Position numbers and translations under genes: made by a program. The notes under the pieces are model-generated. The model saw nothing but the letters and a program-made list of their open reading frames with translations. It ran no database searches and had not been told where the DNA came from. A stretch of DNA of 64,000 nt from sequence record NC_019423.1. One strand, 5' to 3'. The first letter of the stretch is position 1. The number at the start of each line of letters is the position of its first letter. Source of the stretch: Escherichia phage IME11. Positions 46,352 through 58,086 of the stretch are shown piece after piece.

Positions 46352-46543
46352 TTACATTAGAACTTGTTTACATTTATCAAAAATAGCCTTACGAAGTTCA
46401 GCTTCTTCCCGTGGTTCATCATTGGGATGGTGACCCACTGGACTATTTTGAAAAGCATTCATTAGGAATAAGACCTGATACTCGGTTAATCCATTAATCT
46501 GAATGCTATACGTTTTCTCTGAGGCGATATTTACATTAGCCAT
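46352..46543 (-). CDS. hypothetical small protein
   Basis: ORF track 46352..46600; trimmed to Met at 46543 to avoid overlapping the upstream gene. Confidence 0.4.
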   Translation of the reverse strand: MANVNIASEKTYSIQINGLTEYQVLFLMNAFQNSPVGHHPNDEPREEAELRKAIFDKCKQVLM

Positions 46544-46910
46544 TACGTTTACCTGCCATTGCTTGCAATACAAACACAGCCATATCTGATGCCATGTCAT
46601 CTGTTATATCGTTGACAGTCCCATAAGGGAGTGGGCCATTCTCTTCCCAGTTATCTAACGTGTTTTGCACTTCAGCTAAACCAGCCAGTACCATTTCCTT
46701 GCTTGGTTCCAGCCATAATTTACGTTCTTCTGCCAGTGCAGCAATACACATACGGAGAGAAGCAATATTTGCAGGGCAAGCAGCAATATCTCCAGTTACT
46801 GCAATCTCACTAAGTGGTACAGCCTTACCGGTTTTACTATGAATTACTTCAGGATTTATCATGAATTTGCTCCAGGTTATGGGCAGGAATAGGGAAGCAT
46901 GGATAGTCAC
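46536..46910 (-). CDS. hypothetical protein (124 aa)
   Basis: ORF. Confidence 0.45.
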   Translation of the reverse strand: MTIHASLFLPITWSKFMINPEVIHSKTGKAVPLSEIAVTGDIAACPANIASLRMCIAALAEERKLWLEPSKEMVLAGLAEVQNTLDNWEENGPLPYGTVNDITDDMASDMAVFVLQAMAGKRNG

Positions 46911-47067
46911 CGGTAGGGTCCAGTGTTACTGATACATGCAGTGTATTGGTCATTTGGGTTAGCATCTGGGCAGCATTGAAGTCATCCTGAATACAGGCAT
47001 ACACAATGTCACCCTTCTCACCTTCACACATTACGGGTGTGTCTTTGATACGGTATTTAGCAGGCAT
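46849..47067 (-). CDS. hypothetical protein (72 aa)
   Basis: ORF directly after a terminator. Confidence 0.4.
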   Translation of the reverse strand: MPAKYRIKDTPVMCEGEKGDIVYACIQDDFNAAQMLTQMTNTLHVSVTLDPTGDYPCFPIPAHNLEQIHDKS

Positions 47068-47095
47068 ATGCCCTCCTGAAAGAGTTAATTGAAAC

Positions 47096-47121
47096 CAAAA
47101 AAAGACCTCCCGGAGGAGGTC
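47096..47121 (-). terminator. rho-independent terminator
   Basis: GACCTCC-TCCG-GGAGGTC hairpin followed on the minus strand by TTTTTTTGG. Confidence 0.6.
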
Positions 47122-47127
47122 TTAGGT

Positions 47128-47367
47128 TTACTTACTATTTTCTTCAATGAAGCGTCTCATACGTTCCTTTGCTTCATCATGTTCACGAATTGCTTCATAA
47201 TCACGAGCAAAGTAGTAAATGCACCACAAACCAATTTCACTTACAAAGAGCAGAATGCTGGCTCGAATGAACTGCATATCTGTTTCTAATACAAAGGCTA
47301 CTTTGTATGCGAAGATTAGTGTGAGTAAGGCACTAGTTAGCATTGTGTACAGAGCTAGTTTTTTCAT
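47128..47367 (-). CDS. small membrane protein (79 aa)
   Basis: Two hydrophobic helices (LALYTMLTSALLTLIFAY; LLFVSEIGLWCIYYF). Confidence 0.5.
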   Translation of the reverse strand: MKKLALYTMLTSALLTLIFAYKVAFVLETDMQFIRASILLFVSEIGLWCIYYFARDYEAIREHDEAKERMRRFIEENSK

Positions 47368-48308
47368 TCAGTAATAGTCTCACCGGGGATTAACTTACGG
47401 AATTGGATAAAGTGAAGCAGGTTACCTGAATACAGATTCCCTTCTTTATCCATGGATGTAACACCTTGTTCCCAGGTAACTGGGTTCATGTTATTCACGT
47501 ACTTCTCACCAAGGTTCATAGGCGTAGCTTGATGTTCCGTTGGAGAAGCATGAATAGGTTGGTTTTCCACTAACTTAGCGAACAAGCCGAGGTCTTCTTC
47601 GATAGTAGAAGGGCGTCCTTCAAAGTTGTTATAGGAAGCTCGTGCACAACGTGCAGCACTCACTTTGAGAAGTAATCCATACATTTCTGCAATACTTGGT
47701 TCATCGCGTGTAACTCGATTACGTTTGCAGAAATTATAAGCCCCAACACGGTCACTATGAGTAATATATGGCAGATGCCAATGTCCATGCGATAGTGTTT
47801 TTGGTGAACTCTCTTCTTGTGCCTTACGCATTGCTTGAGCCAGTTCACGAATTTCTGGTTGTGCATCTTTGTGGTCACGCAGTCCATAGAAGTTAGCCCA
47901 GCTTGTTGAAGTTACCACTACACGGATATGTGTGAATGGTTCCAGAATACGGTTAACAATCTGCTTATGTACTTGCCCACGACGCAACATTTCAGCATAG
48001 GTGGCAACACTGGATGCAGCCTGTTCCCAGATAAAAATTGCATCACTGCGTTGGTCTTCTGATAGCTCTTCAAATGCTTGCATACCTTTCTGGTTCTTAC
48101 CCCAGTGACTTGGCATCACTGGTTCATTACGAACTTGTTCGATGAACTTAGCAGTGGGGATAGCACGACTACTTGAAGCATTACGGTTGAATACACGGTG
48201 GGTCATAAACTCACTGTGAATGAATCGGGGATAAACCAATTCAAAGGTTGTGATACGAGTTCCTGTTTCTGGATGAACGGAATCTGCAATTACTGATGCC
48301 TTAATCAT
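47364..48308 (-). CDS. thyX: flavin-dependent thymidylate synthase candidate (ThyX-like)
   Basis: 314 aa; SEFMTHRVFNRNASSSRAIP resembles the ThyX R-H-R-x7-S-x-R signature (first Arg replaced by Thr); lies in a nucleotide-metabolism cluster. Confidence 0.45.
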   Translation of the reverse strand: MIKASVIADSVHPETGTRITTFELVYPRFIHSEFMTHRVFNRNASSSRAIPTAKFIEQVRNEPVMPSHWGKNQKGMQAFEELSEDQRSDAIFIWEQAASSVATYAEMLRRGQVHKQIVNRILEPFTHIRVVVTSTSWANFYGLRDHKDAQPEIRELAQAMRKAQEESSPKTLSHGHWHLPYITHSDRVGAYNFCKRNRVTRDEPSIAEMYGLLLKVSAARCARASYNNFEGRPSTIEEDLGLFAKLVENQPIHASPTEHQATPMNLGEKYVNNMNPVTWEQGVTSMDKEGNLYSGNLLHFIQFRKLIPGETITE

Positions 48309-48751
48309 TAGAATGACCTTAGATAGTTGGTGATACCACTTCTCGTCTCTGTGATTCTCTTAACCTGAACGTATACCAGCTTAAACTCACTACGAGGTAG
48401 TTCTTGTAATACTGCTACACCTTCAGTAAGGGCCACAGAACACGCTACAGCGGTTTCTTCTTTAAAGGAGTACAAGTCTTCATACATGAGGGCTTCATAC
48501 TCTTTACGGAGCATACAGAGAGCAACTCTTGCCTTATCACTTACTTCTTGTGAACCAGCAGACATAGCTAAGCTGTATATGATAAAGACTTGTTCAAAAA
48601 CAAAGTCCAGTAATCTATCAGGGGTATTAGTACCCATGAATAATTTTGTTGTATAGGAACGAGCTTTACGGTTGAGTTCATACTCATCCTCTATGCCTTT
48701 ATTATAAAGAACAGGATTTCGTTCCCTTTTTCTTAGGAATGGGATACGCAT
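48308..48751 (-). CDS. hypothetical protein (147 aa)
   Basis: ORF, stop-start overlap with neighbours. Confidence 0.5.
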   Translation of the reverse strand: MRIPFLRKRERNPVLYNKGIEDEYELNRKARSYTTKLFMGTNTPDRLLDFVFEQVFIIYSLAMSAGSQEVSDKARVALCMLRKEYEALMYEDLYSFKEETAVACSVALTEGVAVLQELPRSEFKLVYVQVKRITETRSGITNYLRSF

Positions 48752-49137
48752 TAGTATTTACTACCTCTTCTATACCAGGGGTAGTGGTGAGTAGTACTCT
48801 TACCCTTGAACAAGTCACGAGTAATGGGATTCTTTCGTAACTGCTCCAGGTATAGGTACATGTGACCTTCTCCTGGATATGCCCAGAACTTATCTATGAT
48901 ATGGTCTACCTTAGATTTCAGATGCGGTTCTGGGGGAATGTATGAGGTGGTATTAAAAGGTCTTCCAGTAGTCCATCCTTTCTGAACAAGAACCTGCATT
49001 GTTGTATAAAGATCTAATTCACTTTCATTCTCTACTTGGTCATGAATAGTTTTACCCAAAGTAAGCATTGCAGTTTGTTCCAGCTTACTTAAGTCCAGCC
49101 CATACAAGATAGACTTACCATTTCGTCTGTTTGACAT
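48751..49137 (-). CDS. hypothetical protein (128 aa)
   Basis: ORF downstream of a terminator. Confidence 0.5.
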   Translation of the reverse strand: MSNRRNGKSILYGLDLSKLEQTAMLTLGKTIHDQVENESELDLYTTMQVLVQKGWTTGRPFNTTSYIPPEPHLKSKVDHIIDKFWAYPGEGHMYLYLEQLRKNPITRDLFKGKSTTHHYPWYRRGSKY

Positions 49138-49143
49138 ACGAGT

Positions 49144-49168
49144 ACCTGTAATTAAAAAAGCCCACGGG
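49144..49168 (-). terminator. rho-independent terminator
   Basis: GCCCAC-ATAACCC-GTGGGC hairpin followed on the minus strand by TTTTTTAATT. Confidence 0.6.
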
Positions 49169-49252
49169 TTATGTGGGCTTGGATTAGGAGAAGGATAAGC
49201 AATGAGCTGGAAGCAACTTCCAGAAGTACCCTCTTAGGGATACTTCGGTTAG

Positions 49253-49531
49253 TTACTCTGCTTTACTGCCACCATTGGTTTGAACAACAGTTACATTTGT
49301 AACCTGGTTCTGACCTTTGTTGGACAGTGCCCAAATAAGTGCTACTACCCAGAAGACTAAAGACCAGCCTAATACGATATTAAGCACACCAATGCCCCAC
49401 TTAGAGGCATGGCCTCGTGTAAAAGCGATGATAGTAGGGATAAGGTATACAGCTAATACAAATAACAGAACAAGGATTGCTGCTAAAGATTCCATGATGG
49501 TTCCTATGTAGGGTTGAGTTAGTTTCTTCAC
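49253..49531 (-). CDS. small inner-membrane protein (superinfection-immunity-like topology)
   Basis: 92 aa with two long hydrophobic helices (LAAILVLLFVLAVYLIPTIIAF; GIGVLNIVLGWSLVFWVVALIWAL). Confidence 0.45.
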   Translation of the reverse strand: MKKLTQPYIGTIMESLAAILVLLFVLAVYLIPTIIAFTRGHASKWGIGVLNIVLGWSLVFWVVALIWALSNKGQNQVTNVTVVQTNGGSKAE

Positions 49532-49568
49532 AAATAGCCCAACTATGCTGGGCTATTTAGGCAGCTAC

Positions 49569-49778
49569 TTACTCAGAGTCTTTGCTTGCAGGTGTAAGAG
49601 CTTTCTTCAGGTAATTGCGTACTGAACGATAGGTTTCTTTGGTTTCTATATAGTTATTATCTACAAATATGACGCGTGCATGGTCAGACTGTGGAATCTG
49701 TTCTACTGCAATTACATTTGCAGCATTAATGGTTAAGCGTACATCTGAGGTTGCATGAGTTACTTGAAATACTGACAT
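49569..49778 (-). CDS. hypothetical protein (69 aa)
   Basis: ORF. Confidence 0.4.
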   Translation of the reverse strand: MSVFQVTHATSDVRLTINAANVIAVEQIPQSDHARVIFVDNNYIETKETYRSVRNYLKKALTPASKDSE

Positions 49779-49787
49779 GAGTTTTCC

Positions 49788-50294
49788 TTATTTACTGCTT
49801 CTTGCAGCTACTGGTTTGTTTTCCTGGTTCTGATACTTGCCATTGTAATTAGCAGGTTCCTGAACCAGATGAAATAATACTTGAGCTATCCCAGAACCAG
49901 CCGGGATATGCAGTTTTTTACGACCATGATAGACCAATTCGAGGGTAAGATACCCTTTCCATCCTGGTTCGATTACTGTATTAAATACGGATAATGCACG
50001 TCTTGCCCATGTAGACTTGTCGTGAACGATAGCCACACAGGATGGTGACATGTTGAACTTCTCAATTGCTGAAGCCAATGCGAATTTACCGAGATGGCGT
50101 GATACTTGATCTCCATCAACGACCTTCACCATTGGAATCAACCCAAATAAGCAATAGAAGGTAATATCTTGTTTGATGCGAATATCATAACCAGCTTCAC
50201 CTAATCCATAGCTTACACCATGTTCGGATACCTTACGGTCTGGTACATCCAGCAACTGAGATGAACGATATAGAGAATTACCATTAACAACCAT
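49788..50294 (-). CDS. dcd: dCTP deaminase-like (dUTPase-fold) enzyme
   Basis: 168 aa; GYDIRI and VIEPGWKGYLTLELV resemble the conserved dCTP deaminase/dUTPase motifs (from memory). Confidence 0.55.
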   Translation of the reverse strand: MVVNGNSLYRSSQLLDVPDRKVSEHGVSYGLGEAGYDIRIKQDITFYCLFGLIPMVKVVDGDQVSRHLGKFALASAIEKFNMSPSCVAIVHDKSTWARRALSVFNTVIEPGWKGYLTLELVYHGRKKLHIPAGSGIAQVLFHLVQEPANYNGKYQNQENKPVAARSSK

Positions 50295-51469
50295 TATTTC
50301 ATTCCTTTAGGGATATGAACTACCTCCCCAAAAGGTACGGTAGCATTGGGATTATTCAGAACACACCAGATGATAGGGATATCAAATGGTAATTCTTCCA
50401 TTGGACGAACATACATATCAGAGAATATGATTGCAGCGGTTGGCTTATTCTTAATAATCCAATCTCGTACTGGTTCAAGGTTTGTACCACCACGGCCTGT
50501 AATCTTAATCTCTTCGAAAGTATCTTCTTCAGTGATGTCTATTTCTTCCTGAATAATATCGTCGAAGGTAATTAAGGACATCTTCTTAGGATTAAACTGG
50601 CTCTTAACATAGGCAACCTCTGAGTTAAAACGCAGAGAGTCAGCACTACTAATAGAACCAGATACATCCTCAAAGTAGGCTAAGTGTCGTAAGCGTCCTT
50701 CATCATCTTCCAGGGAAGGTAGATAAATGTCAAAGAAACGACGGTTAGGTCTGGCCCACGTATAATGTGTGTCATCAATGTCGGTAAAGAAGTTCATCAG
50801 AACTTCCTGCCAGGGAACCACTGGTTTAAGGAATTGGGTAATAACCTCTTCCATGCGACCAGCACCTTTACCGGGCATTGTTCCACCAGCCATCTTCTGG
50901 CTCTGCATTGCACGTACTACGTTGTTGACAACAGCACCCTGGGACTGCCCCGAAGAGGGAGCTTTCATGTCGCCAGCAAGACCTGCTCCAGCACCCCCAG
51001 ACGGCTTCTGCCTTTTCTGAGGGTTCTTCATCAGGTCATCGTAGATGTCTTCTTCGACCCATCCTTTATATTGAGGGTCTTTGCAAATACCTTTATCAAT
51101 GCCAGTGAACTTATAACCATCTTCCTCTAACTGAAGGTTAATGAAGTGATCACATGCCTGGTTCCAGACTTCCGGGTCACGGCTTCCACAACGGATGCCA
51201 TGTAGATATGCTACATGCCAGAGTTCGTGCATTAACACTGTTTCCCTTGCATCTGGGCACATCCAGATAAAGAAATCTGGGTTGAAATGGAGTTCTATCC
51301 CATCAGTACATGCAGTGGGACAATCCTCACGTTTCCATGAGAACTTAAGACTACACAGCAATGAACCAAAAAACGCTGCACTGCGTCCTAGGAAAGCGTT
51401 GGCCTGAATACGGTCATACTCACGCAAGAGTTGTTCATCACTAAGTGTGTGCTGAGGTATCTGGTTCAT
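50294..51469 (-). CDS. VWA-domain protein with N-terminal HExxH metallopeptidase-like motif
   Basis: ORF track 50294..51553; Met at 51469 avoids overlap with the ATPase gene; HELWHVAYLH motif; C-terminal half has a VWA-like pattern; paired with the upstream AAA ATPase. Confidence 0.5.
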   Translation of the reverse strand: MNQIPQHTLSDEQLLREYDRIQANAFLGRSAAFFGSLLCSLKFSWKREDCPTACTDGIELHFNPDFFIWMCPDARETVLMHELWHVAYLHGIRCGSRDPEVWNQACDHFINLQLEEDGYKFTGIDKGICKDPQYKGWVEEDIYDDLMKNPQKRQKPSGGAGAGLAGDMKAPSSGQSQGAVVNNVVRAMQSQKMAGGTMPGKGAGRMEEVITQFLKPVVPWQEVLMNFFTDIDDTHYTWARPNRRFFDIYLPSLEDDEGRLRHLAYFEDVSGSISSADSLRFNSEVAYVKSQFNPKKMSLITFDDIIQEEIDITEEDTFEEIKITGRGGTNLEPVRDWIIKNKPTAAIIFSDMYVRPMEELPFDIPIIWCVLNNPNATVPFGEVVHIPKGMK

Positions 51470-51476
51470 AGTGTGA

Positions 51477-52529
51477 TTACCCGTGAATGTAACGAGAGAT
51501 ATTAGCAGCAGCCTTACGCCATTCAGGAGTAGCCTGAAGATCTGGTAATGCATTGCCTACTGTACGGAAGTACAGAATCTTATGGGTGAATGTTTTAAAG
51601 CGTTCAATATACTGAAGAACATCAGCAAAGTTTTCTTCAGTAGTTTTGTTAGCCAGATGGTTAACGGTAGCCCAGCACAGGTTGTTATCTTCCGGTAGTG
51701 CACAGCCCATAGGGTCTTTAACTACCTTCTCAATCGTAATCATACGATTGTACACCTGAGTAAACTGAACAAATTCTGTAGCTTTACCAGCAGTAACGTG
51801 ACCTGCATAGTAGATAGAATCTTCATCAGGCAGAGCACCTTCTGGCAGGTTCTTGAGGTCTTTGTTAACAAAGTCCCAAGTACGAGGACAACAGAACGTT
51901 TTGTTTTTATGAGCAGGGTCGAAGTCATGTAGATAACCAGGGTTAGCATGTAAGAATGCAACCAGACGTTCATCCCATTGCTGAGGAACCATTACGTCTT
52001 CAACAAAGATGTCGAAGTTAAGTTCCATTTCAAAGTGAACCACACGAGACTGCATTGCAGTACCTAGTGGGTTAACAATGGCACGGTCGGTAGCTTTGTT
52101 ACCAGCACATACAATCATCACATTAGGATGAAGTTTTTTCTGACCTGTCATACGGTCCAGAATCAGTTTGTATGCAGCAGCTACTACTTCTTTCTTAGCT
52201 GAGTTGAACTCATCAAGGAATAAGAGCCAGCCATTATACCCTTCTGGTAATTCATCCCCCTCAATAGGAAATAAGTCAGCGAATGGGATAAATTCTGCAC
52301 GGTCACCATTACGAAATGGTAAGCCAGAAAGGTCTTCCGGGGCAGAAGTAGACAGACGGTGGTCTATCAGCTTCATACCAAATTCTTCTGCAACAGAACG
52401 AATAATTGCAGATTTACCCATGCCCGGTGATGAAGTCAGGAACGGTACGTTACCTGCTCTAAGGGCACGGATAATAAAGTTACGAGCTTGACGTGTATTA
52501 CATACGGTCAAGGAGTCAATGCTTGCCAT
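51477..52529 (-). CDS. AAA+ ATPase (MoxR/CbbQ-like)
   Basis: 350 aa; Walker A SPGMGKSAI, Walker B LLFLDEFN, sensor-like VCAGN. Confidence 0.7.
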   Translation of the reverse strand: MASIDSLTVCNTRQARNFIIRALRAGNVPFLTSSPGMGKSAIIRSVAEEFGMKLIDHRLSTSAPEDLSGLPFRNGDRAEFIPFADLFPIEGDELPEGYNGWLLFLDEFNSAKKEVVAAAYKLILDRMTGQKKLHPNVMIVCAGNKATDRAIVNPLGTAMQSRVVHFEMELNFDIFVEDVMVPQQWDERLVAFLHANPGYLHDFDPAHKNKTFCCPRTWDFVNKDLKNLPEGALPDEDSIYYAGHVTAGKATEFVQFTQVYNRMITIEKVVKDPMGCALPEDNNLCWATVNHLANKTTEENFADVLQYIERFKTFTHKILYFRTVGNALPDLQATPEWRKAAANISRYIHG

Positions 52530-52563
52530 TTACTTACTCTCCTAAAGTTAATGGAATTACTAA

Positions 52564-52893
52564 TTAAGATTTGGTGCAGGGATATGCCTTGTGTACTGAG
52601 TACACAACAATTTGAGATGTATTCTTCAATTTGAGGATTGCAGAGTCATAAATAACTACTTTGGCAATCTTAGGCAGAATGTCTGAATACTTAATACCAT
52701 CTGGAACACAGTTATCAGTGTTCTCGATGTAAGCAATCATACTGCCCATGAAGAATCCTTGTCCGAATGCATCACGAGTGTCATCCAGGTAAGCCTGAGC
52801 ACCTTCCAGAATTGGTTCTGGTTCAATTGCTTGTGCATTTGGGGCCAAAGCTATCAGTGCAGCTACGGTAAAACCTTTAAGTAAAGTTTTCAT
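52564..52893 (-). CDS. secreted/periplasmic small protein
   Basis: N-terminal signal peptide MKTLLKGFTVAALIALAPNAQA with AxA cleavage-site-like end. Confidence 0.5.
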   Translation of the reverse strand: MKTLLKGFTVAALIALAPNAQAIEPEPILEGAQAYLDDTRDAFGQGFFMGSMIAYIENTDNCVPDGIKYSDILPKIAKVVIYDSAILKLKNTSQIVVYSVHKAYPCTKS

Positions 52894-53079
52894 TTAGTTA
52901 CCTTTCATTTCATTGAGATGAAGTACACCGATAGGGGTTAATGACCACCCAAGACCAGCATTGAACTGTACTAAGCCCAGCTTCTTAAGAGACTGTGCGG
53001 TTTTGTTATTACGGTTGCTGGTGGCAGAGCCACCTTGAACCATACGAAGGAAGATTGCTTGGGACTGAGTTAATTTCAA
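52894..53079 (-). CDS. hypothetical protein (61 aa)
   Basis: ORF, stop-start adjacent. Confidence 0.4.
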   Translation of the reverse strand: MKLTQSQAIFLRMVQGGSATSNRNNKTAQSLKKLGLVQFNAGLGWSLTPIGVLHLNEMKGN

Positions 53080-53285
53080 AGGTAATATCCTTCCAGGTTT
53101 ATTGGTGTTACGAATGTACTTGCTGATAGACAGAAAGACTTACCAGTCTCTACTGCAACAGCAGCAGGTTTACCATCAGGTAGGTGAATCTTTAGACATA
53201 CCGTCTGGTTATAAATAAAACCATTAGCAGGCTGCACATCACCAAAAGTTACCTCATTGTTCTCAGAACGATTTGTTACTTTCAT
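53076..53285 (-). CDS. hypothetical protein (69 aa)
   Basis: ORF, 4-nt overlaps with neighbours. Confidence 0.4.
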   Translation of the reverse strand: MKVTNRSENNEVTFGDVQPANGFIYNQTVCLKIHLPDGKPAAVAVETGKSFCLSASTFVTPINLEGYYL

Positions 53286-53503
53286 TTCTTCTCCGGTACG
53301 AACTGCATTACACAGTTTTGGTTACGAGGGATATTCAATTCACATTCATGCTTGAGGGTTTGTGTTACAGAGTTTGGAGTAGAACCAAAGTAGGTATTAG
53401 AAATAGCTACAAATCCTGCACCTATTAAACCACCCAGTAAGAATGAGAAAAATGCAATCTCTTTATACATTTCCTGGCTCCAGATGTAGAAAACCCCAGT
53501 CAA
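53282..53503 (-). CDS. small membrane protein (73 aa)
   Basis: Hydrophobic helix IAFFSFLLGGLIGAGFVAI. Confidence 0.45.
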   Translation of the reverse strand: MTGVFYIWSQEMYKEIAFFSFLLGGLIGAGFVAISNTYFGSTPNSVTQTLKHECELNIPRNQNCVMQFVPEKK

Positions 53504-53531
53504 TGCTGGGGTTTATCTATCAGTTTATGCT

Positions 53532-53792
53532 TTATAGACCGTGTGGTCGGCATAGGCTGCCCGAACCAAAGGAACGGTGTCCAAGTCGGCCCAGTATTAG
53601 ATTGCTTACTTCAGCAGCAGCACGACTGAATGCTTTAAAATCAAAGGTTACAATACCGAAGAGTGGGGCTGCGATAGCAGCTGCCATGACTGGCGTCAGG
53701 TCAATCAATGACATACCCAAGATTAAGTGGGCAGCGTAGGCAATAAGGCCCATTACAGCACCACAACCGTATCCAATAGCAATTTTACGCAT
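53532..53792 (-). CDS. small membrane protein (86 aa)
   Basis: Two to three hydrophobic helices (VMGLIAYAAHLILGM; VMAAAIAAPLFGIVTF). Confidence 0.45.
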   Translation of the reverse strand: MRKIAIGYGCGAVMGLIAYAAHLILGMSLIDLTPVMAAAIAAPLFGIVTFDFKAFSRAAAEVSNLILGRLGHRSFGSGSLCRPHGL

Positions 53793-53851
53793 AGTTACCT
53801 TCTTAGTTAGTAGGTTGATTTACATATTTATATAACAGACAAACAATAGTC

Positions 53852-53881
53852 AAAAAAAGACCTCCCTTCAATAGGGAGGTC
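53852..53881 (-). terminator. rho-independent terminator
   Basis: GACCTCCC-TATTGAA-GGGAGGTC hairpin followed on the minus strand by TTTTTTTG. Confidence 0.6.
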
Positions 53882-53926
53882 AAACTTGAGGGTTTCATTT
53901 CAGGGTTTATAACCCCAAGAAAGCAA

Positions 53927-54241
53927 TCATACTTGCTTGGTTAGATAATTCAGATACTCTTCCGGGTCATCAAAGAAATCATCTTCAGTTTCAATATACC
54001 AATCCACCCAACGGTCTTCTAAACCCATCTCCACTAGTTCTTGATCAGAGATAGTCTCATCCCACATCTCAATACCGTTAGCATTAGCATAATTGCCTTT
54101 GACATTGTTCTCATACTGAAATAGGTCATAGTCTGCTAATGCATTCTTAATCTTAACAGCTTCCTGAAGACTATCTGTCTCTACATGAAATGCCTTCATT
54201 GGCACTTGAGGAATGTGCCATACACGCAATTTTTGTGTCAT
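53927..54241 (-). CDS. hypothetical acidic protein (104 aa)
   Basis: ORF; Asp/Glu-rich C-terminal half. Confidence 0.5.
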   Translation of the reverse strand: MTQKLRVWHIPQVPMKAFHVETDSLQEAVKIKNALADYDLFQYENNVKGNYANANGIEMWDETISDQELVEMGLEDRWVDWYIETEDDFFDDPEEYLNYLTKQV

Positions 54242-54255
54242 TTTTACTCTCCTAT

Positions 54256-54285
54256 AAATACAAGAAAGCCCTCACAAGGAGGGCT
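54256..54285 (-). terminator. rho-independent terminator
   Basis: AGCCCTC-CTTGT-GAGGGCT hairpin followed on the minus strand by TTCTTGTATTT. Confidence 0.5.
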
Positions 54286-54307
54286 ATAACCACGAAAAGA
54301 AATACAC

Positions 54308-55141
54308 TTACTCTGCAACAGTAATAGCGATGGTTACATCGACAGTACCATTGGTAACTACTACAGAAGTAGCTTCACCAGCAGCCACTGGTTTAACTGT
54401 CAGCACATTACCAGCAAGGGTAGCTGTAGCACGAGCAGAATCCGGAGCAGTTTTGATAGTCAGCGTACCAGCAGAAGAACCAACAGGCATAGCAGCAATT
54501 GTTACGGTCTTACCGGCAGCGGTATCAGCAGCAACAGACAGAGCCAGTGAATCAGGAGTAGCTACCAGTGAGCTTGCTTCGTAGTAGCCTACAGCCAGCA
54601 ATGAGGTATCTTCTACAGTGGTTCCATTAGCATCAGTAACAATTACTTTATAAGTACCAGCAGAAGCAGCTGTTACGTCATTAAGAGTCAATGTTGCAGT
54701 AATAGCAGATGCGTTCTCACCTGAATCAATATCAGCGAATACTGCACCAGCGGTATCAGCTTTAAATTGCCATTTATAAGTAAATGGTGCTTTACCACCT
54801 GCTACATCAACATGCCAGTTAATATCTTCACCTTCGATAGCGGAGATTACACGAGGCAGTTTGGTAGCAATAGTCAGTCGTGGAGTTGCTTTCATATCAA
54901 TAGAGATAGACTGCATATCCACGATGTTGTTAGGCCAGAAACCTGCTTCAGCAGGGTTTTTAGCAGAGCGTTTATACAGCAGATCACGTACACCGTGATA
55001 GATAACTAAGCTATCAGGGTAAGTGGCATCTGGGTGTACAAAGGTTCCTACTTCTACTGAACCACCGGGGATAGAACCACCGGCATCCAGTACAGTTGCG
55101 ACATTAGTGGTTTTGTTAAAACCTACTTTCAAAGTTGGCAT
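54308..55141 (-). CDS. Ig-like domain protein (candidate capsid decoration protein)
   Basis: ORF track 54308..55204; Met at 55141 preceded by GAGGA; Thr/Ala/Val-rich beta-strand repeats (TYKVIVTDANGTTV; TVTIAAMPVGSSAGTLTIKT) typical of Ig-like/Big domains; N4-like phages carry a decoration-protein gene outside the late operon (from memory). Confidence 0.45.
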   Translation of the reverse strand: MPTLKVGFNKTTNVATVLDAGGSIPGGSVEVGTFVHPDATYPDSLVIYHGVRDLLYKRSAKNPAEAGFWPNNIVDMQSISIDMKATPRLTIATKLPRVISAIEGEDINWHVDVAGGKAPFTYKWQFKADTAGAVFADIDSGENASAITATLTLNDVTAASAGTYKVIVTDANGTTVEDTSLLAVGYYEASSLVATPDSLALSVAADTAAGKTVTIAAMPVGSSAGTLTIKTAPDSARATATLAGNVLTVKPVAAGEATSVVVTNGTVDVTIAITVAE

Positions 55142-55215
55142 ATCAATTTCCTCATAAGTAAATAGCAGGGTTAGTATACACGATGGGTAAAAATAAAAAC
55201 CCACCTAGTGGTGGG

Positions 55216-55398
55216 TTAGTTGATTACACAGTAGAGAGCAAAAGCCATCCATCCTGCCATTACAAAGCAGCCAAATGAATATGCCCCATAGTAGCAATAG
55301 GCAAACTTAGACTTGTGGGCACGAACTATCGTAGCCAGAACCAGTACAGATAAAACTATCAGTATTAGCTGAAAGATTACTTCAAAATTGATTAGCAT
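55216..55398 (-). CDS. small membrane protein
   Basis: ORF track 55216..55431; Met at 55398 preceded by GGAGGT avoids the terminator hairpin; hydrophobic helices. Confidence 0.45.
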   Translation of the reverse strand: MLINFEVIFQLILIVLSVLVLATIVRAHKSKFAYCYYGAYSFGCFVMAGWMAFALYCVIN

Positions 55399-55415
55399 AG
55401 TTGTTACCTCCAAGC

Positions 55416-55449
55416 AAAAAATAAGCCTCACTCCCGAAGGAATGAGGCT
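55416..55449 (-). terminator. rho-independent terminator with CUUCGG-type loop
   Basis: AGCCTCA...TCC-TTCG-GGA...TGAGGCT hairpin followed on the minus strand by TTTTTTGCTT. Confidence 0.5.
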
Positions 55450-55582
55450 AGTTTACTAACACACTTGCACAGTCCAACCATTGTAGGAATCTACGAAGGC
55501 AATCCAGTCATCTTCTGACCAGAAGATAGAACAAACTCCTGGGGCTTTGAATCTATATAAACCTTGTCTATAGGCTTCTTTT

Positions 55583-56800
55583 TTAACTAAGGGCATAATC
55601 AGTCTCCAGAATGTCCTGCCAGAGGCTGTCATCCAGCTTACCAGCAGAGAACTCTTGCCCCAATACCTGAGACAGGATGAAGCCCAGCAGGTCACTCTTA
55701 GCGATGTCAGACAGAATCTGATTGTACTGACGACGCAGGTCATTACCGTAGTTAGGATGGCAACGGAAGCAGTCATGCACAGTCATTACAGGGAATGGTT
55801 TCTTAGGCAGAGTGTCAATCATATCTGCTACTACCTGACGGTCTACATAAGCAATAGTACATGGGTCAAGATAATCAATGATTGATAATGATAAGAAGCC
55901 AGATTTCTCATAGTGGCTCCATAGCTCTTGTACCTTCTCCAGATTACCTACAATCTCCCCATATTCTGATGGACCTTCATCACAGAGTTCTCTCACAGCT
56001 TCCACTAAGTCACGGTCGAAGTTACAACGACGCAGCATCTCACGTACCACCATCCCATCAATTGAGTGAGTGATGTTAGCAGAGAGCATACGAGTCTTCT
56101 CTTCAGTACCCTGAACCATACGAGTGATGTCGAATGGCTTACCTAAGAAGTTAACAGTCTGTACTTCAGGAACCATTACCTTAATGACAGCGTGGAAGTT
56201 GTCAGGCAGTACCCATATATAACGGTTGGCATCCGGGTTACCACATTGCAGTAAGAACTTGTTCAGTGCCCAAGGACCACTTGCAACAGTTTCCATTACA
56301 TTCTCAAAAGTCTTGAGACGAATACCTTCACCGAATACCTCTTTGGGCTTGGCTTCTGAGCCGTAGAATGCAGTCATAACTGCTTGCTTGGTGTCACTAC
56401 GTTTAATACGGGATGCTTCACCAAGGATGTCCAGCATCTTGTGATAGATGACTGTATAAGCATCACGACGTAATGGCTTACCATTCTCTCCCATGTAGTT
56501 AACTACGTTACACAGTTCAGCAGCAGAACGGTCACCAGTCAGGCAGGCCAGTAACTGCAAGCCTGATGATGTAGCATCCAGAGCTACGGCATAACCGATA
56601 GGCTTACCTGCTTTCATATCTTTCCATGCGTTTACACCAGCAAAGAACAGTGCAGATTCTTCAGCCTCATCTACCAGATTAAGCAGGTTAGTTTCGTTCT
56701 CATCGAACCAAGCAATACGCTCATCCCATGTCTTCTTATCTAAGCCATAGTTATTGGCGATATCTACTTTCAGGTATTCACGAGCGGTTAACAGTTGCAT
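55583..56800 (-). CDS. phage RNA polymerase II, catalytic subunit (T7-like single-subunit RNAP palm/fingers)
   Basis: 405 aa; motif A ALDATSSGLQ (compare T7 DGSCSGIQ), motif B RSDTKQAVMTAFYGS (compare T7 RSVTKRSVMTLAYGS), motif C VMTVHDCF (compare T7 HDSF); T7 sequences quoted from memory. Confidence 0.7.
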   Translation of the reverse strand: MQLLTAREYLKVDIANNYGLDKKTWDERIAWFDENETNLLNLVDEAEESALFFAGVNAWKDMKAGKPIGYAVALDATSSGLQLLACLTGDRSAAELCNVVNYMGENGKPLRRDAYTVIYHKMLDILGEASRIKRSDTKQAVMTAFYGSEAKPKEVFGEGIRLKTFENVMETVASGPWALNKFLLQCGNPDANRYIWVLPDNFHAVIKVMVPEVQTVNFLGKPFDITRMVQGTEEKTRMLSANITHSIDGMVVREMLRRCNFDRDLVEAVRELCDEGPSEYGEIVGNLEKVQELWSHYEKSGFLSLSIIDYLDPCTIAYVDRQVVADMIDTLPKKPFPVMTVHDCFRCHPNYGNDLRRQYNQILSDIAKSDLLGFILSQVLGQEFSAGKLDDSLWQDILETDYALS

Positions 56801-56857
56801 TTTATGTTCCTTTTGCTTCTTGGCTCCCCACTATGGAGAGCCTGCTTATTGGATGGA

Positions 56858-57097
56858 TTAGCCAGCATTAAATGATGCCAATACTATTCCTGGTTCCACA
56901 CCTTCGGTGGCAATGCCCAGATATTCAACGTTTACTTTGTCAGGGGAAGAGCACCAAGCGGAGTATAGTTTCCATTCCCCGTCTGGGTTAATAAGGCGAG
57001 CTTCCTCTTCAGTTTTAGCCGCTACTACAGCAGAATCGTATGAATCCCATCCCGTATTTTCTTCCTGGCTAATAAGCCATAGTTTTAATCTACTCAT
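56858..57097 (-). CDS. hypothetical protein (79 aa) between the two RNAP II subunit genes
   Basis: ORF with AAGGAG RBS 8 nt upstream of the ATG. Confidence 0.55.
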   Translation of the reverse strand: MSRLKLWLISQEENTGWDSYDSAVVAAKTEEEARLINPDGEWKLYSAWCSSPDKVNVEYLGIATEGVEPGIVLASFNAG

Positions 57098-57116
57098 CGT
57101 TTACTAGCTCCTTATC

Positions 57117-57278
57117 TTAGATGGTTACTACGTCTGCAGTTAGTTTGTAAATTATGGTTTTACTCTTAGGGTTCTGTAGCTTGTAAAGCTTCTCAAAGTA
57201 TAAGCACTTCACATATGTACCTGAGTAAATACACTCTTCATTAACCCATAGCTCATAGGAGCCAATGTTAGTCTTCAT
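57117..57278 (-). CDS. small ORF (53 aa) between the two RNAP II subunit genes
   Basis: Below the ORF-track cut-off; AAGGAG RBS 8 nt upstream of the ATG; start overlaps the upstream stop by 11 nt. Confidence 0.4.
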   Translation of the reverse strand: MKTNIGSYELWVNEECIYSGTYVKCLYFEKLYKLQNPKSKTIIYKLTADVVTI

Positions 57279-58086
57279 TTACTAACTCCTTATCAGCGAA
57301 CTCCAGCACAGCTTTGTTGTAACTGGTTCCCTGATAGTTGATGTGGTAGCCACAGGCATATGTACGCCCACGTTTGTCATATTTGTGAGCCAAGGAGAAG
57401 TTATTGCCTTCTTTGGTTACTAGCTCCATTACTTCCTTAGCTGTACGACTGTACTTCTCAAAGGCTTTAACACGTTTCTCATAGTCCTGACGGGTTTCAC
57501 CTTCTTTGGGTTTATCCATGTTAGGACGAGAGTCTTTTACGTAGTTAGCAACGTCCCAGTTAATGCAGAGACGTTGATTATTCATACGGTTGATGTGGTC
57601 AAGACAGACGTCCATCTCATGATGGTTCTTCTTGAGGATGATGCTTCCTTTGCTTTCGTAGTAACCGGTGTCACGGTTACTCATAACAGGCTTAGGAGCA
57701 CTTACGATAGGCAATGGGTACTGGAATGCTTCCAGTTCCATCTGTACATCTTCACCAATCTCATAAATAACACCGAACTTGTCGATGGTAGGGTCATAGT
57801 TGAAGCAGTCATTCTCTGCCATCTTATACAGACAGTCAGCGATGTACTGAGCATCATCTGAGTGACTCATGAGGGAGCCAATCATAGTTTGAATGTCAGC
57901 TCGTTTATGTAGGGCAATCTGCACCATTGCATCAATGAGCAGCTTATAATCAATTTCTAAATAGGCAGCGAATGCCTTAAAGTCAATTTCTTTGGAGTCC
58001 TCGAATTCCTTCCTCATGCGAGGCAGGAGCTGATTTTTATTGAATAGTACTTCGAGTTGCTTCTGATGTTCGATTGACGAGTACAT
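57268..58086 (-). CDS. phage RNA polymerase II, N-terminal-type subunit
   Basis: 272 aa; C-terminal YDKRGRTYACGYHINYQG resembles the T7 RNAP D-x-x-G-R region (DWRGRVYAVSMFNPQG, from memory). Confidence 0.55.
   Translation of the reverse strand: MYSSIEHQKQLEVLFNKNQLLPRMRKEFEDSKEIDFKAFAAYLEIDYKLLIDAMVQIALHKRADIQTMIGSLMSHSDDAQYIADCLYKMAENDCFNYDPTIDKFGVIYEIGEDVQMELEAFQYPLPIVSAPKPVMSNRDTGYYESKGSIILKKNHHEMDVCLDHINRMNNQRLCINWDVANYVKDSRPNMDKPKEGETRQDYEKRVKAFEKYSRTAKEVMELVTKEGNNFSLAHKYDKRGRTYACGYHINYQGTSYNKAVLEFADKELVNED

Follow-up and report, generated by a model that had tools for sequence, protein, structure and literature searches.

A two-gene module in the genome of phage IME11

The window analyzed here, a 64,000-nucleotide stretch of the Escherichia phage IME11 record NC_019423.1, is the genome of a Gamaleyavirus-like, N4-type coliphage. 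Both genes of interest were found on its minus strand, the first encoding an AAA+ ATPase and the second, immediately downstream, its partner. The features that define the locus are the following:

47364-48308: ThyX, a neighbor of the ATPase-partner pair (Pfam/PHROG)
49158-49180, minus strand: terminator-like hairpin downstream of the unit with the pair (pattern match only)
49788-50294, minus strand: dCTP deaminase (dcd), ortholog of N4 gp26 (Pfam DCD, PHROG 1663)
50294-51469, minus strand: gp25-type putative zinc metallopeptidase and VWA/MIDAS protein, 391 aa (ORF, Pfam, PHROG 1314, N4 gp25 60%)
51477-52529, minus strand: gp24-type MoxR-like AAA+ ATPase, 350 aa
53859-53881, minus strand: terminator-like hairpin upstream of the unit with the pair (pattern match only)

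The unit bounded by the two hairpins consists of small ORFs, the ATPase gene, the gp25-type gene, dcd, and two further small ORFs. An AGGAG ribosome-binding site lies 5' of the ATPase ORF, the stop codon of which is separated by 7 nt from the ATG of the gp25-type gene, whereas the stop codon of the latter and the ATG of dcd share one nucleotide (TAATG). Although the longest gp25-type ORF extends to 51553, its start was set at the ATG at 51469 because this choice matches the 390-394-aa homologs and the annotation of St11Ph5. The ORF list of the window contains no third gene between or beside the pair. With dCTP deaminase and ThyX as neighbors, the pair lies within a nucleotide-metabolism cluster, as had been noted earlier from the sequence, and the order ATPase-partner-dcd was also found in N4, St11Ph5, and a Mesorhizobium contig.

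Orthology to gp24 and gp25 of phage N4

BLASTP aligned the ATPase over its full length with N4 gp24 (62% identity, E 2e-173) and the partner, also over its full length, with N4 gp25 (60% identity, E 8e-175). By these sequence comparisons and by gene order the pair is orthologous to gp24 and gp25, core genes of the Schitoviridae; both belong to the 14 core genes of N4-like phages and have been described as middle genes (PMC4193335). N4 has the same order of ATPase, partner, and dCTP deaminase, 3' of RNAP2, as the window, with a gp24-gp25 spacing of 167 nt versus 7 nt and no essential difference otherwise. The identity of the pair to its N4 counterparts is similar to that of the neighboring enzymes (RNAP2, 68%; ThyX, 67%; dcd, 63%) and well above that of the accessory ORFs, which reach only 35-41%. 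Neither the two ORFs nor their domain matches are due to chance. The pair was already known descriptively as a core module of N4-like phages, which our scan re-describes, and an equivalent pair has been described previously in jumbo phages too (PMC7824862). Literature searches on N4, DUF2201, COG3864, and MoxR in phages retrieved no experimental or functional data on gp24/gp25-type pairs, in agreement with the earlier statement that their role in infection is largely unknown.

Assignment of the gp24-type protein to the AAA+ ATPases

The ATPase comprises an AAA+ core (residues ~25-170) and a helical, family-specific C-terminal domain (~170-350), and carries the following motifs:

52410-52433, minus strand: P-loop/Walker A motif SSPGMGKS, residues 33-40 (translation)
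52209-52226, minus strand: Walker B motif LLFLDE, residues 102-107 (translation)
52098-52100, minus strand: Asn144 (AGN), presumed sensor 1
52044-52046, minus strand: R162, candidate Arg finger or sensor 2
51882-51884, minus strand: R216 in PRTW, candidate Arg finger or sensor 2

The roles given to N144, R162, and R216 are presumed from their position and from known MoxR motifs. In the P-loop, K39 and S40 are intact, and Ser stands in place of the first Gly of GxxxxGK[ST], as in N4-like members. Residues G38, K39, S40, D106, and E107 were invariant in 41 ATPase homologs, and G36, G38, K39, D106, and E107 over five unrelated phage lineages, while N144, R162, and R216 were invariant in both alignments.

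The score against the Pfam AAA model (PF00004) was 27.4 bits for a cut-off of 21.2, which classifies the protein as an AAA+ ATPase. Against Pfam AAA_5 the protein of the window scored 16.4 bits, under the gathering cut-off of 22, whereas its relatives from PAC2 (24.0 bits) and Pra-JY27 (23.6 bits) passed it. The AF2 model shows the AAA+ fold. A low-confidence segment of ~40 residues that joins beta2 to beta3, and two short paired strands ahead of beta4, are candidate counterparts of the helix-2 insert and the pre-sensor-1 beta-hairpin that mark this class. The model's best structural matches were dynein AAA modules, midasin, CbbQ, and NorQ. Midasin was also the sole match, a weak one, in a PDB sequence search, and a relative from Synechocystis pSYSA is named "MoxR family ATPase" by PGAP. 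No further Pfam family was detected in the C-terminal half at E<10, and NCBIfam and PADLOC scans of both the ATPase and its partner gave no matches. Two other classifications were discarded: Mg-chelatase/CobS, for which there was only a weak match to PHROG 249 (E 8e-4) and no Pfam Mg_chelatase match, and bpMoxR, the MoxR of beta-propeller ternary systems, with 14.1 bits for a cut-off of 27.

In the gp24-type protein, an AAA+ ATPase of the class that includes dynein, midasin, and MoxR, the residues for nucleotide binding and hydrolysis are all conserved. The Walker A/B ATPase that the earlier note had recognized is borne out by the Pfam AAA score and the invariant motif residues, and its MoxR type by the structural matches and by the relatives that pass AAA_5, the cut-off under which the window protein itself remains.

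The gp25-type protein combines a putative metallopeptidase domain and a VWA domain

The partner is divided into two domains joined by a linker, as follows:

51215-51229, minus strand: HELWH (HExxH) motif (translation)
51200-51202, minus strand: H90, candidate third metal ligand
51149-51151, minus strand: D107, candidate third metal ligand
50711-51421, minus strand: DUF2201_N putative metallopeptidase domain, residues 17-253 (Pfam, E 2.7e-54)
50738-50752, minus strand: linker motif RPNRR, residues 240-244, inside W238...Y249-L-P251, between the two domains
50312-50683, minus strand: VWA-like domain, residues 263-386 (DUF2201, E 1.7e-33)
50654-50668, minus strand: MIDAS motif D268-x-S270-G-S272 (DVSGS), plus T329 and D351

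The DUF2201_N match had a score of 185 bits, and the whole protein matched PHROG 1314 with E 4.8e-144. Residues H81, E82, H85, H90, and D107 of the N-terminal half and the MIDAS residues D268, S270, S272, T329, and D351 were invariant both in the gp25 homologs and in the alignment of five lineages, at an overall identity of 23-29%. Within the linker, W238, R243, R244, Y249, L250, and P251 were invariant in the gp25 homologs and R240, P241, and N242 nearly so, with P241, R243, and P251 being invariant across the five lineages. The AF2 model of the protein had a pLDDT of 79, with values below 50 for the linker (residues 232-252), and its C-terminal half matched VWA domains, including those of the MDN1 MIDAS and NorD.

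As judged from the model, the C-terminal half is a VWA fold with a complete MIDAS. The protein also has an intact zincin-type HExxH site and is a putative peptidase by motif and by Pfam label. PDB sequence searches, with the single sequence or with a 42-sequence profile, found no solved structural relative of the N-terminal half, nor did a fold search with the full-length model, in which VWA matches filled the lists, and no other Pfam peptidase family was detected in this half at E<10. Pfam, alignment, and model agree with the earlier description of a metallopeptidase-like N-terminal half with HELWH and a VWA C-terminal half. Of the families named in that note, DUF2201 was recovered in its N-terminal and VWA-like parts, and AAA_5 scored below its cut-off in the ATPase.

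Distribution in phages and plasmids

Homologs of the ATPase were found in 827 phage records and homologs of the partner in 707, with the same genus profile, and linkage of the two genes is kept in Schitoviridae, Mimasvirus, Wroclawvirus, Vequintavirinae, and a Planktothrix phage. In public data, the gp25 profile has about 22,000 matching cluster representatives, and a scan of genome contigs returned mostly N4-like contigs, not independent bacterial operons. The "anti-sigma factor" encoded beside the rV5-like homolog is related to neither protein of the pair.

Homologous cassettes were also detected on ~137 large plasmids. Their full-length ATPase aligns with the gp24 profile at E 1e-42 to 1e-46, and their partner with the gp25 profile at E 1e-58 to 1e-61. 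These cassettes adjoin T4SS/PRTRC, ParB/toprim, or toxin-antitoxin genes, and include a third gene of ~300 aa that had no tblastn match in the window; the cassette of phage Pra-JY27 has this third gene as well. Because this third gene is missing from the window, phage and plasmid functions may differ.

The Walker B region of gp24 is interrupted in phage U1G, exactly between codons 105 and 106, by an intron-like insert of 882 bp with an HNH gene, and some gp25 homologs contain inteins between A105 and C106, in an NxA|CD motif. Homing elements typically choose such sites in highly constrained genes, so that these insertions, together with the level of identity to N4, point to constraint on the pair.

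Proposed role and alternative explanations

We propose, with confidence that is evenly poised, that the pair could function as a two-component, adaptor-targeted, ATP-dependent protease acting on a client during the middle phase. By analogy with NorQ-NorD, CbbQ-CbbO, and Rea1/Mdn1, gp24 would assemble as a hexameric ring, onto which a single gp25 would dock through its VWA domain; in the general MoxR/VWA model, the pore of the hexamer is plugged by a VWA monomer (PMC9976466). The MIDAS metal would hold an acidic residue of the client protein, ATP hydrolysis by gp24 would remodel or partly unfold it, and the tethered zinc-peptidase domain of gp25 would cut it; all of this would happen in the cytoplasm while middle genes are expressed and the phage replicates. 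In favor of this model we count the orthology and shared gene order with N4, the invariant motifs, the structural matches, the co-distribution of the two genes, the plasmid cassettes, and the constraint on the pair. As the cassette is common to unrelated virulent phages and large conjugative or linear plasmids, the client is more likely to be host- or replication-associated than a virion component, and might be a protein met by any incoming replicon. Counting against the protease model are the AAA_5 score of the window ATPase, the N-terminal domain of gp25 without a solved relative, and the fact that classical MoxR/VWA pairs insert metal cofactors and do not cut proteins.

The pair might instead be a virion-assembly chaperone with a processing protease that folds, assembles, or trims tail, fiber, or head proteins, which we regard as rather unlikely although it has to be weighed seriously. 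An assembly role was proposed for the group 2.2 jumbo phages (PMC7824862) and has a precedent, demonstrated in outline, in p618/p892 of Acidianus two-tailed virus (ATV; quoted in PMC7824862 and PMC7159879). In the Rak2-like jumbo phages GAP32 and phAPEC6 the pair sits among head-completion, sheath, neck, and fiber genes, and the MoxR ATPase of phAPEC6 (gp265c) was detected by MS in purified virions with 6 peptides; this placement and this detection fit a morphogenetic role, against our main explanation. However, the same phAPEC6 virion list includes thymidylate synthase, implying that abundant non-structural proteins contaminate it, and does not include the gp25-like gp264c. The "second structural module" of roseophage RPP1 adjoins its gp24/gp25 homologs (PMC4193335), and the region of the N4 pair also holds, a few kb upstream, the gene for the decoration protein gp17. 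Against assembly, the N4-like pair was reported to be transcribed with the middle genes (PMC4193335), and in the window it lies at a distance from the late genes, in translational coupling with dCTP deaminase. Furthermore, closely related cassettes are carried by conjugative and linear plasmids, which make no virions, and these argue against a purely virion-assembly role.

A narrower form of the protease model, which we offer as unlikely and speculative, is that the pair would be the phage version of a mobile-element cassette, found in virulent phages of at least five lineages and on large conjugative or linear plasmids. It would act as a zinc protease, gated by ATP and targeted by its MIDAS, and would eliminate one particular host protein early in replication of the element. 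If true, the pair would represent a previously unrecognized host-takeover or counter-defense protease, with for example a defense or DNA-associated factor as its target, and not a chaperone.

We find it improbable that the pair carries out classical MoxR/VWA maturation, that is, the insertion or exchange of a metal or cofactor in, or the reactivation of, a nucleotide or replication enzyme, with HExxH as a metal-binding or delivery module. The characterized bacterial MoxR/VWA pairs, such as NorQD, CbbQO, CoxDE, and RavA-ViaA, are all maturation or activase systems (PMC7159879, PMC9976466). Genes for dTMP synthesis also recur near the pair, with dcd and ThyX in the window and N4, ThyA in GAP32 and phAPEC6, and DHFR and ThyA in metagenomic phage contigs, but the jumbo-phage and metagenomic cases may be one lineage, which would leave perhaps just two independent observations, and PAC2, Pra-JY27, rV5-like phages, and the plasmids have no such enzyme genes beside it. 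Counting further against maturation, neither ThyX nor dCTP deaminase requires, to our knowledge, an inserted metal cluster. In addition, all aligned homologs keep the general-base Glu of HExxH, as expected of a hydrolase; metal delivery would not need it.

The "HNH endonuclease" reading of gp25-type proteins, backed only by the label in many RefSeq phage records and PHROG 1314, is wrong and keeps a vanishingly small probability, as the Pfam domain search found no HNH family, with DUF2201_N and DUF2201 spanning the whole length of the protein. The label probably spread from records with real HNH homing genes in or beside the pair (U1G, pSb-1, PAC2).

N4-like phages are a family with uses in phage therapy, and gp24 and gp25 are two of the only 14 genes that they all share; identification of the client would explain a widespread, conserved step in the exploitation of bacteria by mobile elements. 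A mislabel spread through RefSeq would also be put right.

Comparison with known systems

The group 2.2 jumbo phages encode a MoxR AAA+ ATPase and a metallopeptidase-vWA protein of the same two families and in the same gene order (Iyer et al. 2021, PMC7824862), as illustrated by the matches of GAP32_210 to the gp24 profile (E 4.6e-38) and of GAP32_211 to the gp25 profile (E 2.5e-43). The jumbo-phage pair differs in being embedded among virion genes and in the length of its products, with ~100 additional residues in the ATPase and ~60 in the partner.

In the MoxR-vWA ternary conflict systems (Kaur et al. 2020, PMC7159879), a MoxR ATPase is found with a vWA domain fused to a peptidase effector, which is rarely a metallopeptidase. 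These are host defense systems and have a third gene, as do the plasmid relatives, whereas the pair of the window has none and consists of core genes of virulent phages. Its assignment to this class was rejected on the lack of a third component (VMAP, iSTAND, or beta-propeller), the bpMoxR score below the cut-off, and the absence of a PADLOC match.

The p618 (MoxR) and p892 (VWA) proteins of ATV are the only viral MoxR-VWA pair with experimental data, and are likened here to the pair of the window by description. ATV is an archaeal virus, and its pair functions in extracellular tail growth and has no peptidase domain.

The VWA partners of NorQ-NorD, CbbQ-CbbO, and RavA-ViaA likewise have no peptidase domain, and these systems insert cofactors or reactivate enzymes. 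Unlike NorQ, CbbQ, and RavA, the phage ATPase has an extra helical C-terminal domain of ~180 residues with no Pfam match.

FtsH is an analog in function only, one in which unfolding driven by ATP feeds an HExxH zinc peptidase. It belongs to another AAA clade and another peptidase family, and is a single membrane-anchored polypeptide with no VWA/MIDAS.

Midasin (Rea1/Mdn1), which is eukaryotic and has no peptidase, contains six AAA modules and a MIDAS in one giant chain; its MIDAS grip on the client, combined with an AAA ring, is the working principle that we assume the phage pair to share.

Locus organization and relationship to phage N4

The ATPase gene and the gene for its partner, a putative metallopeptidase with a VWA-like domain, lie in a unit bordered by two terminator-like hairpins, between which are found five small ORFs, the two genes of the pair, dcd (dCTP deaminase) and two further small ORFs.

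55583-56800, RNAP2 gene, upstream of the pair
53881-53859, minus strand, terminator-like hairpin, one border of the unit
51477-52529, minus strand, ATPase (ORF call, 350 aa)
50294-51469, minus strand, partner ORF (391 aa), starting 7 nt after the ATPase ORF
49788-50294, minus strand, dCTP deaminase gene, its ATG sharing one base with the partner stop codon
49180-49158, minus strand, terminator-like hairpin, other border of the unit
47364-48308, ThyX gene, a short way downstream

The adjoining dCTP deaminase and the nearby ThyX bear out the nucleotide-metabolism setting described in the earlier note. Directly upstream of the ATPase, a 109-aa ORF (52564-52893, minus strand) has a signal-peptide-like N-terminus (MKTLLKGFTVAALIALAPNAQA); it falls in PHROG 11132, a family whose label gives no function, and resembles Rap1a immunity proteins weakly, below threshold (E 0.0029). 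Across 46500-57500, sigma-70-like promoter matches were depleted (10 versus 23.5 ± 4.5 in shuffles) and terminator-like hairpins enriched (14 versus 7.1 ± 2.9), a pattern that would fit transcription by phage-encoded RNA polymerases.

The 2.2-kb segment holding the pair matched 57 phage records, of which 54 show 90-99% nucleotide identity; most are Gamaleyavirus phages of Escherichia and Shigella. In St11Ph5 (Gamaleyavirus, Schitoviridae) the same two genes are annotated gp24 and gp25. Over their full length, the ATPase and the partner share 62% and 60% identity with gp24 and gp25 of phage N4, respectively, and the gene order gp24-gp25-gp26 (dcd) is common to the window and N4. The pair belongs to the N4 gp24/gp25 orthologous group. 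Judged by sequence conservation it is strongly constrained, its identity to N4 being in the range of that of RNAP2, ThyX and dcd, with accessory ORFs at 35-41%. A comparative study (PMC4193335) placed N4 genes 24 ("unknown") and 25 ("vWFA domain") among 14 N4-like core genes and listed both as middle transcripts.

Sequence features of the ATPase and its partner

The ORF read in the earlier note as an AAA+ ATPase with Walker A and B motifs is present and matched Pfam AAA above the cut-off, although AAA_5, the family suggested there, stayed below it. The P-loop (G38-K39-S40) and Walker B (D106-E107) residues, together with N144, R162 and R216, were invariant in 41 homologs at 50-88% identity and also in four other phage lineages (21-28% identity), in which P64 and G69 of a PxDLxG-like motif were invariant as well. 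The AF2 model was confident (pLDDT 86), and midasin was the only match in a PDB sequence search. Residues ~170-350, for which the Pfam scan returned no match, form a helical domain in the model that is common, at least partly, to relatives in other phages and plasmids. In the gp24-type protein the AAA+ motor is intact and of the MoxR/midasin class.

In U1G (Gamaleyavirus), the gp24 gene is interrupted by an 882-bp insert, annotated 'phage intron', that encodes an HNH homing endonuclease and lies exactly between codons 105 and 106, within Walker B (LLFL/DEF; window 52214/52215). Phage pSb-1 is a similar case, and three clusters of truncated ATPases (P0141, P0145 and P0197) mirror the same split. 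The U1G gp25 is annotated as two CDSs too, via a frameshift or sequencing error.

The HExxH and VWA-like domains expected in the partner were likewise recovered, as DUF2201_N ("putative metallopeptidase", E 2.7e-54) and DUF2201 ("VWA-like", E 1.7e-33). Residues H81-E82-x-x-H85, H90 and D107, and the metal site of the VWA domain (MIDAS; D268-x-S270-G271-S272, T329 and D351), were invariant in 42 N4-type homologs; they were also invariant when 12 sequences from five phage lineages (23-29% identity) were aligned. At the sequence level, then, both the MIDAS-VWA domain and the HExxH site are intact. PDB sequence, Pfam and model fold searches found no solved structural relative of the N-terminal half, so the 'metallopeptidase' assignment depends on the motif and on the Pfam family name. 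Since the HExxH glutamate is invariant, hydrolysis is favored over mere metal handling as the likely activity of the site. A linker (W238-x-R-P-N-R-R...Y-L-P251), strongly conserved and modeled with very low confidence, may serve in partner binding or in regulation.

Within the invariant N-x-A-C-D motif, some N4-type gp25 homologs (clusters P0372 and P0364) are split precisely between A105 and C106, corresponding to window ~51152-51154, by an intein with Pfam Intein_splicing and Hint matches (...WNFA/C...HN/CD...). In important proteins, inteins are usually found where constraint is strongest.

The name HNH endonuclease, given to this protein in PHROG 1314 and in numerous RefSeq records, that of N4 gp25 among them, found no support, the Pfam domains being DUF2201_N and DUF2201; this mislabel is widespread. 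In rV5-like phages an 'anti-sigma factor' label stands on or beside the DUF2201 homolog, and in OY979416.1 the feature beneath the DUF2201 match is named 'virion RNA polymerase'.

Distribution in phages, bacterial contigs and plasmids

Among 50,697 phage records, 707 have the partner gene and 827 the ATPase gene, with near-identical genus profiles. The two genes are tightly linked: linked pairs were found in Schitoviridae, Wroclawvirus PAC2 and Planktothrix phage Pra-JY27, and as adjacent genes in Mimasvirus GAP32 and Asteriusvirus phAPEC6, while in rV5-like Vequintavirinae they lie ~3.7 kb apart on opposite strands. A partner profile search of 1.84 billion proteins returned 22,001 cluster representatives, of which 5,503 had E<=1e-30.

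N4-like blocks (RNAP2, ATPase, DUF2201 protein and dCTP deaminase) were seen inside large bacterial contigs of Mesorhizobium yinganensis (contig2, 727 kb), a Roseococcus MAG (297 kb) and Dyella sp. (123 kb). The circular 75-kb A. baumannii record pRBH2-3, classified as a plasmid, has genes for an N4-type small RNA polymerase as well as for the ATPase and the DUF2201 protein; given these genes and its N4-like size, it may be an N4-like genome. All these occurrences could reflect schitovirus relatives, either integrated or carried, or could stem from assembly or binning artefacts.

The partner is also encoded by ~137 plasmid records, with hosts including Burkholderia, Rhodococcus, Cupriavidus, Streptomyces, Mycobacterium and Synechocystis (pSYSA). 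In the two cassettes compared by profile, from B. cenocepacia and Rhodovastum, the adjoining ATPase is a full-length match to the gp24 profile (E 1e-42 to 1e-46), and the partner, which retains both HExxH and DxSGS, fits the gp25 profile (E 1e-58 to 1e-61). Neighboring genes are T4SS and PRTRC genes on the conjugative B. cenocepacia plasmid, ParB and toprim genes in Rhodovastum, toxin-antitoxin and plasmid replication genes in pSYSA, and RAMP and MazF genes in pBD2. Between the ATPase and DUF2201 genes, both compared cassettes hold a third gene of ~300 aa (Burkholderia, L022:7067-7996; Rhodovastum, L023:7090-7989), whose product shares 29-36% identity (E 1e-25 to 1e-42) with that of a homologous Pra-JY27 ORF in the same position (L011:4951-5823); uncharacterized ORFs also separate the two genes in pBD2. 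The third protein had no match in Pfam, NCBIfam or PDB, and its gene is absent from the window.

Putative mechanism and site of action

By analogy with Rea1-MIDAS structures and with the general MoxR/VWA model, in which the pore of a hexamer is plugged by one VWA protein (PMC9976466), gp24 would assemble into a ring on which gp25 would dock via its VWA domain; an acidic residue of the client would be gripped through the gp25 MIDAS metal, and the client, remodeled by ATP hydrolysis, could be cleaved by the tethered zinc domain of gp25. Three features point to an intracellular, non-structural client: the two genes are classed as middle genes, they are coupled to dcd, and the cassette also occurs on plasmids, which make no virions.

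Several observations speak against such a client. A role in virion assembly and processing was proposed for the jumbo-phage pair by Iyer et al. (PMC7824862), with ATV p618/p892 as precedent. The pair sits amid head and tail genes in GAP32 and phAPEC6, a second structural module adjoins gp24/25 in roseophages (PMC4193335), and mass spectrometry of a phAPEC6 virion preparation detected the MoxR ATPase gp265c (6 peptides; PMC7247149). However, the same list includes thymidylate synthase gp259c (3 peptides), encoded six genes from gp265c, and lacks the gp25-like gp264c. Recurrent neighbors (dcd/ThyX, ThyA, or DHFR plus ThyA) would suit a cofactor-insertion factor for nucleotide enzymes, a reading of low probability because other lineages and the plasmids lack this association. 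A chelatase reading was rejected.

Comparison with known systems

The literature search found no functional experiment on a gp24/gp25-type pair. The module itself is already described, and its observation and first interpretation are correct; added here are the invariance of catalytic and MIDAS residues across very distant lineages, a cassette common to phages and plasmids, and the error of the HNH label. The MoxR-vWA ternary conflict system was discarded, with the third gene missing from the window, bpMoxR below cut-off and PADLOC negative. The pair would work like other MoxR/VWA couples, with a putative peptidase effector in addition.
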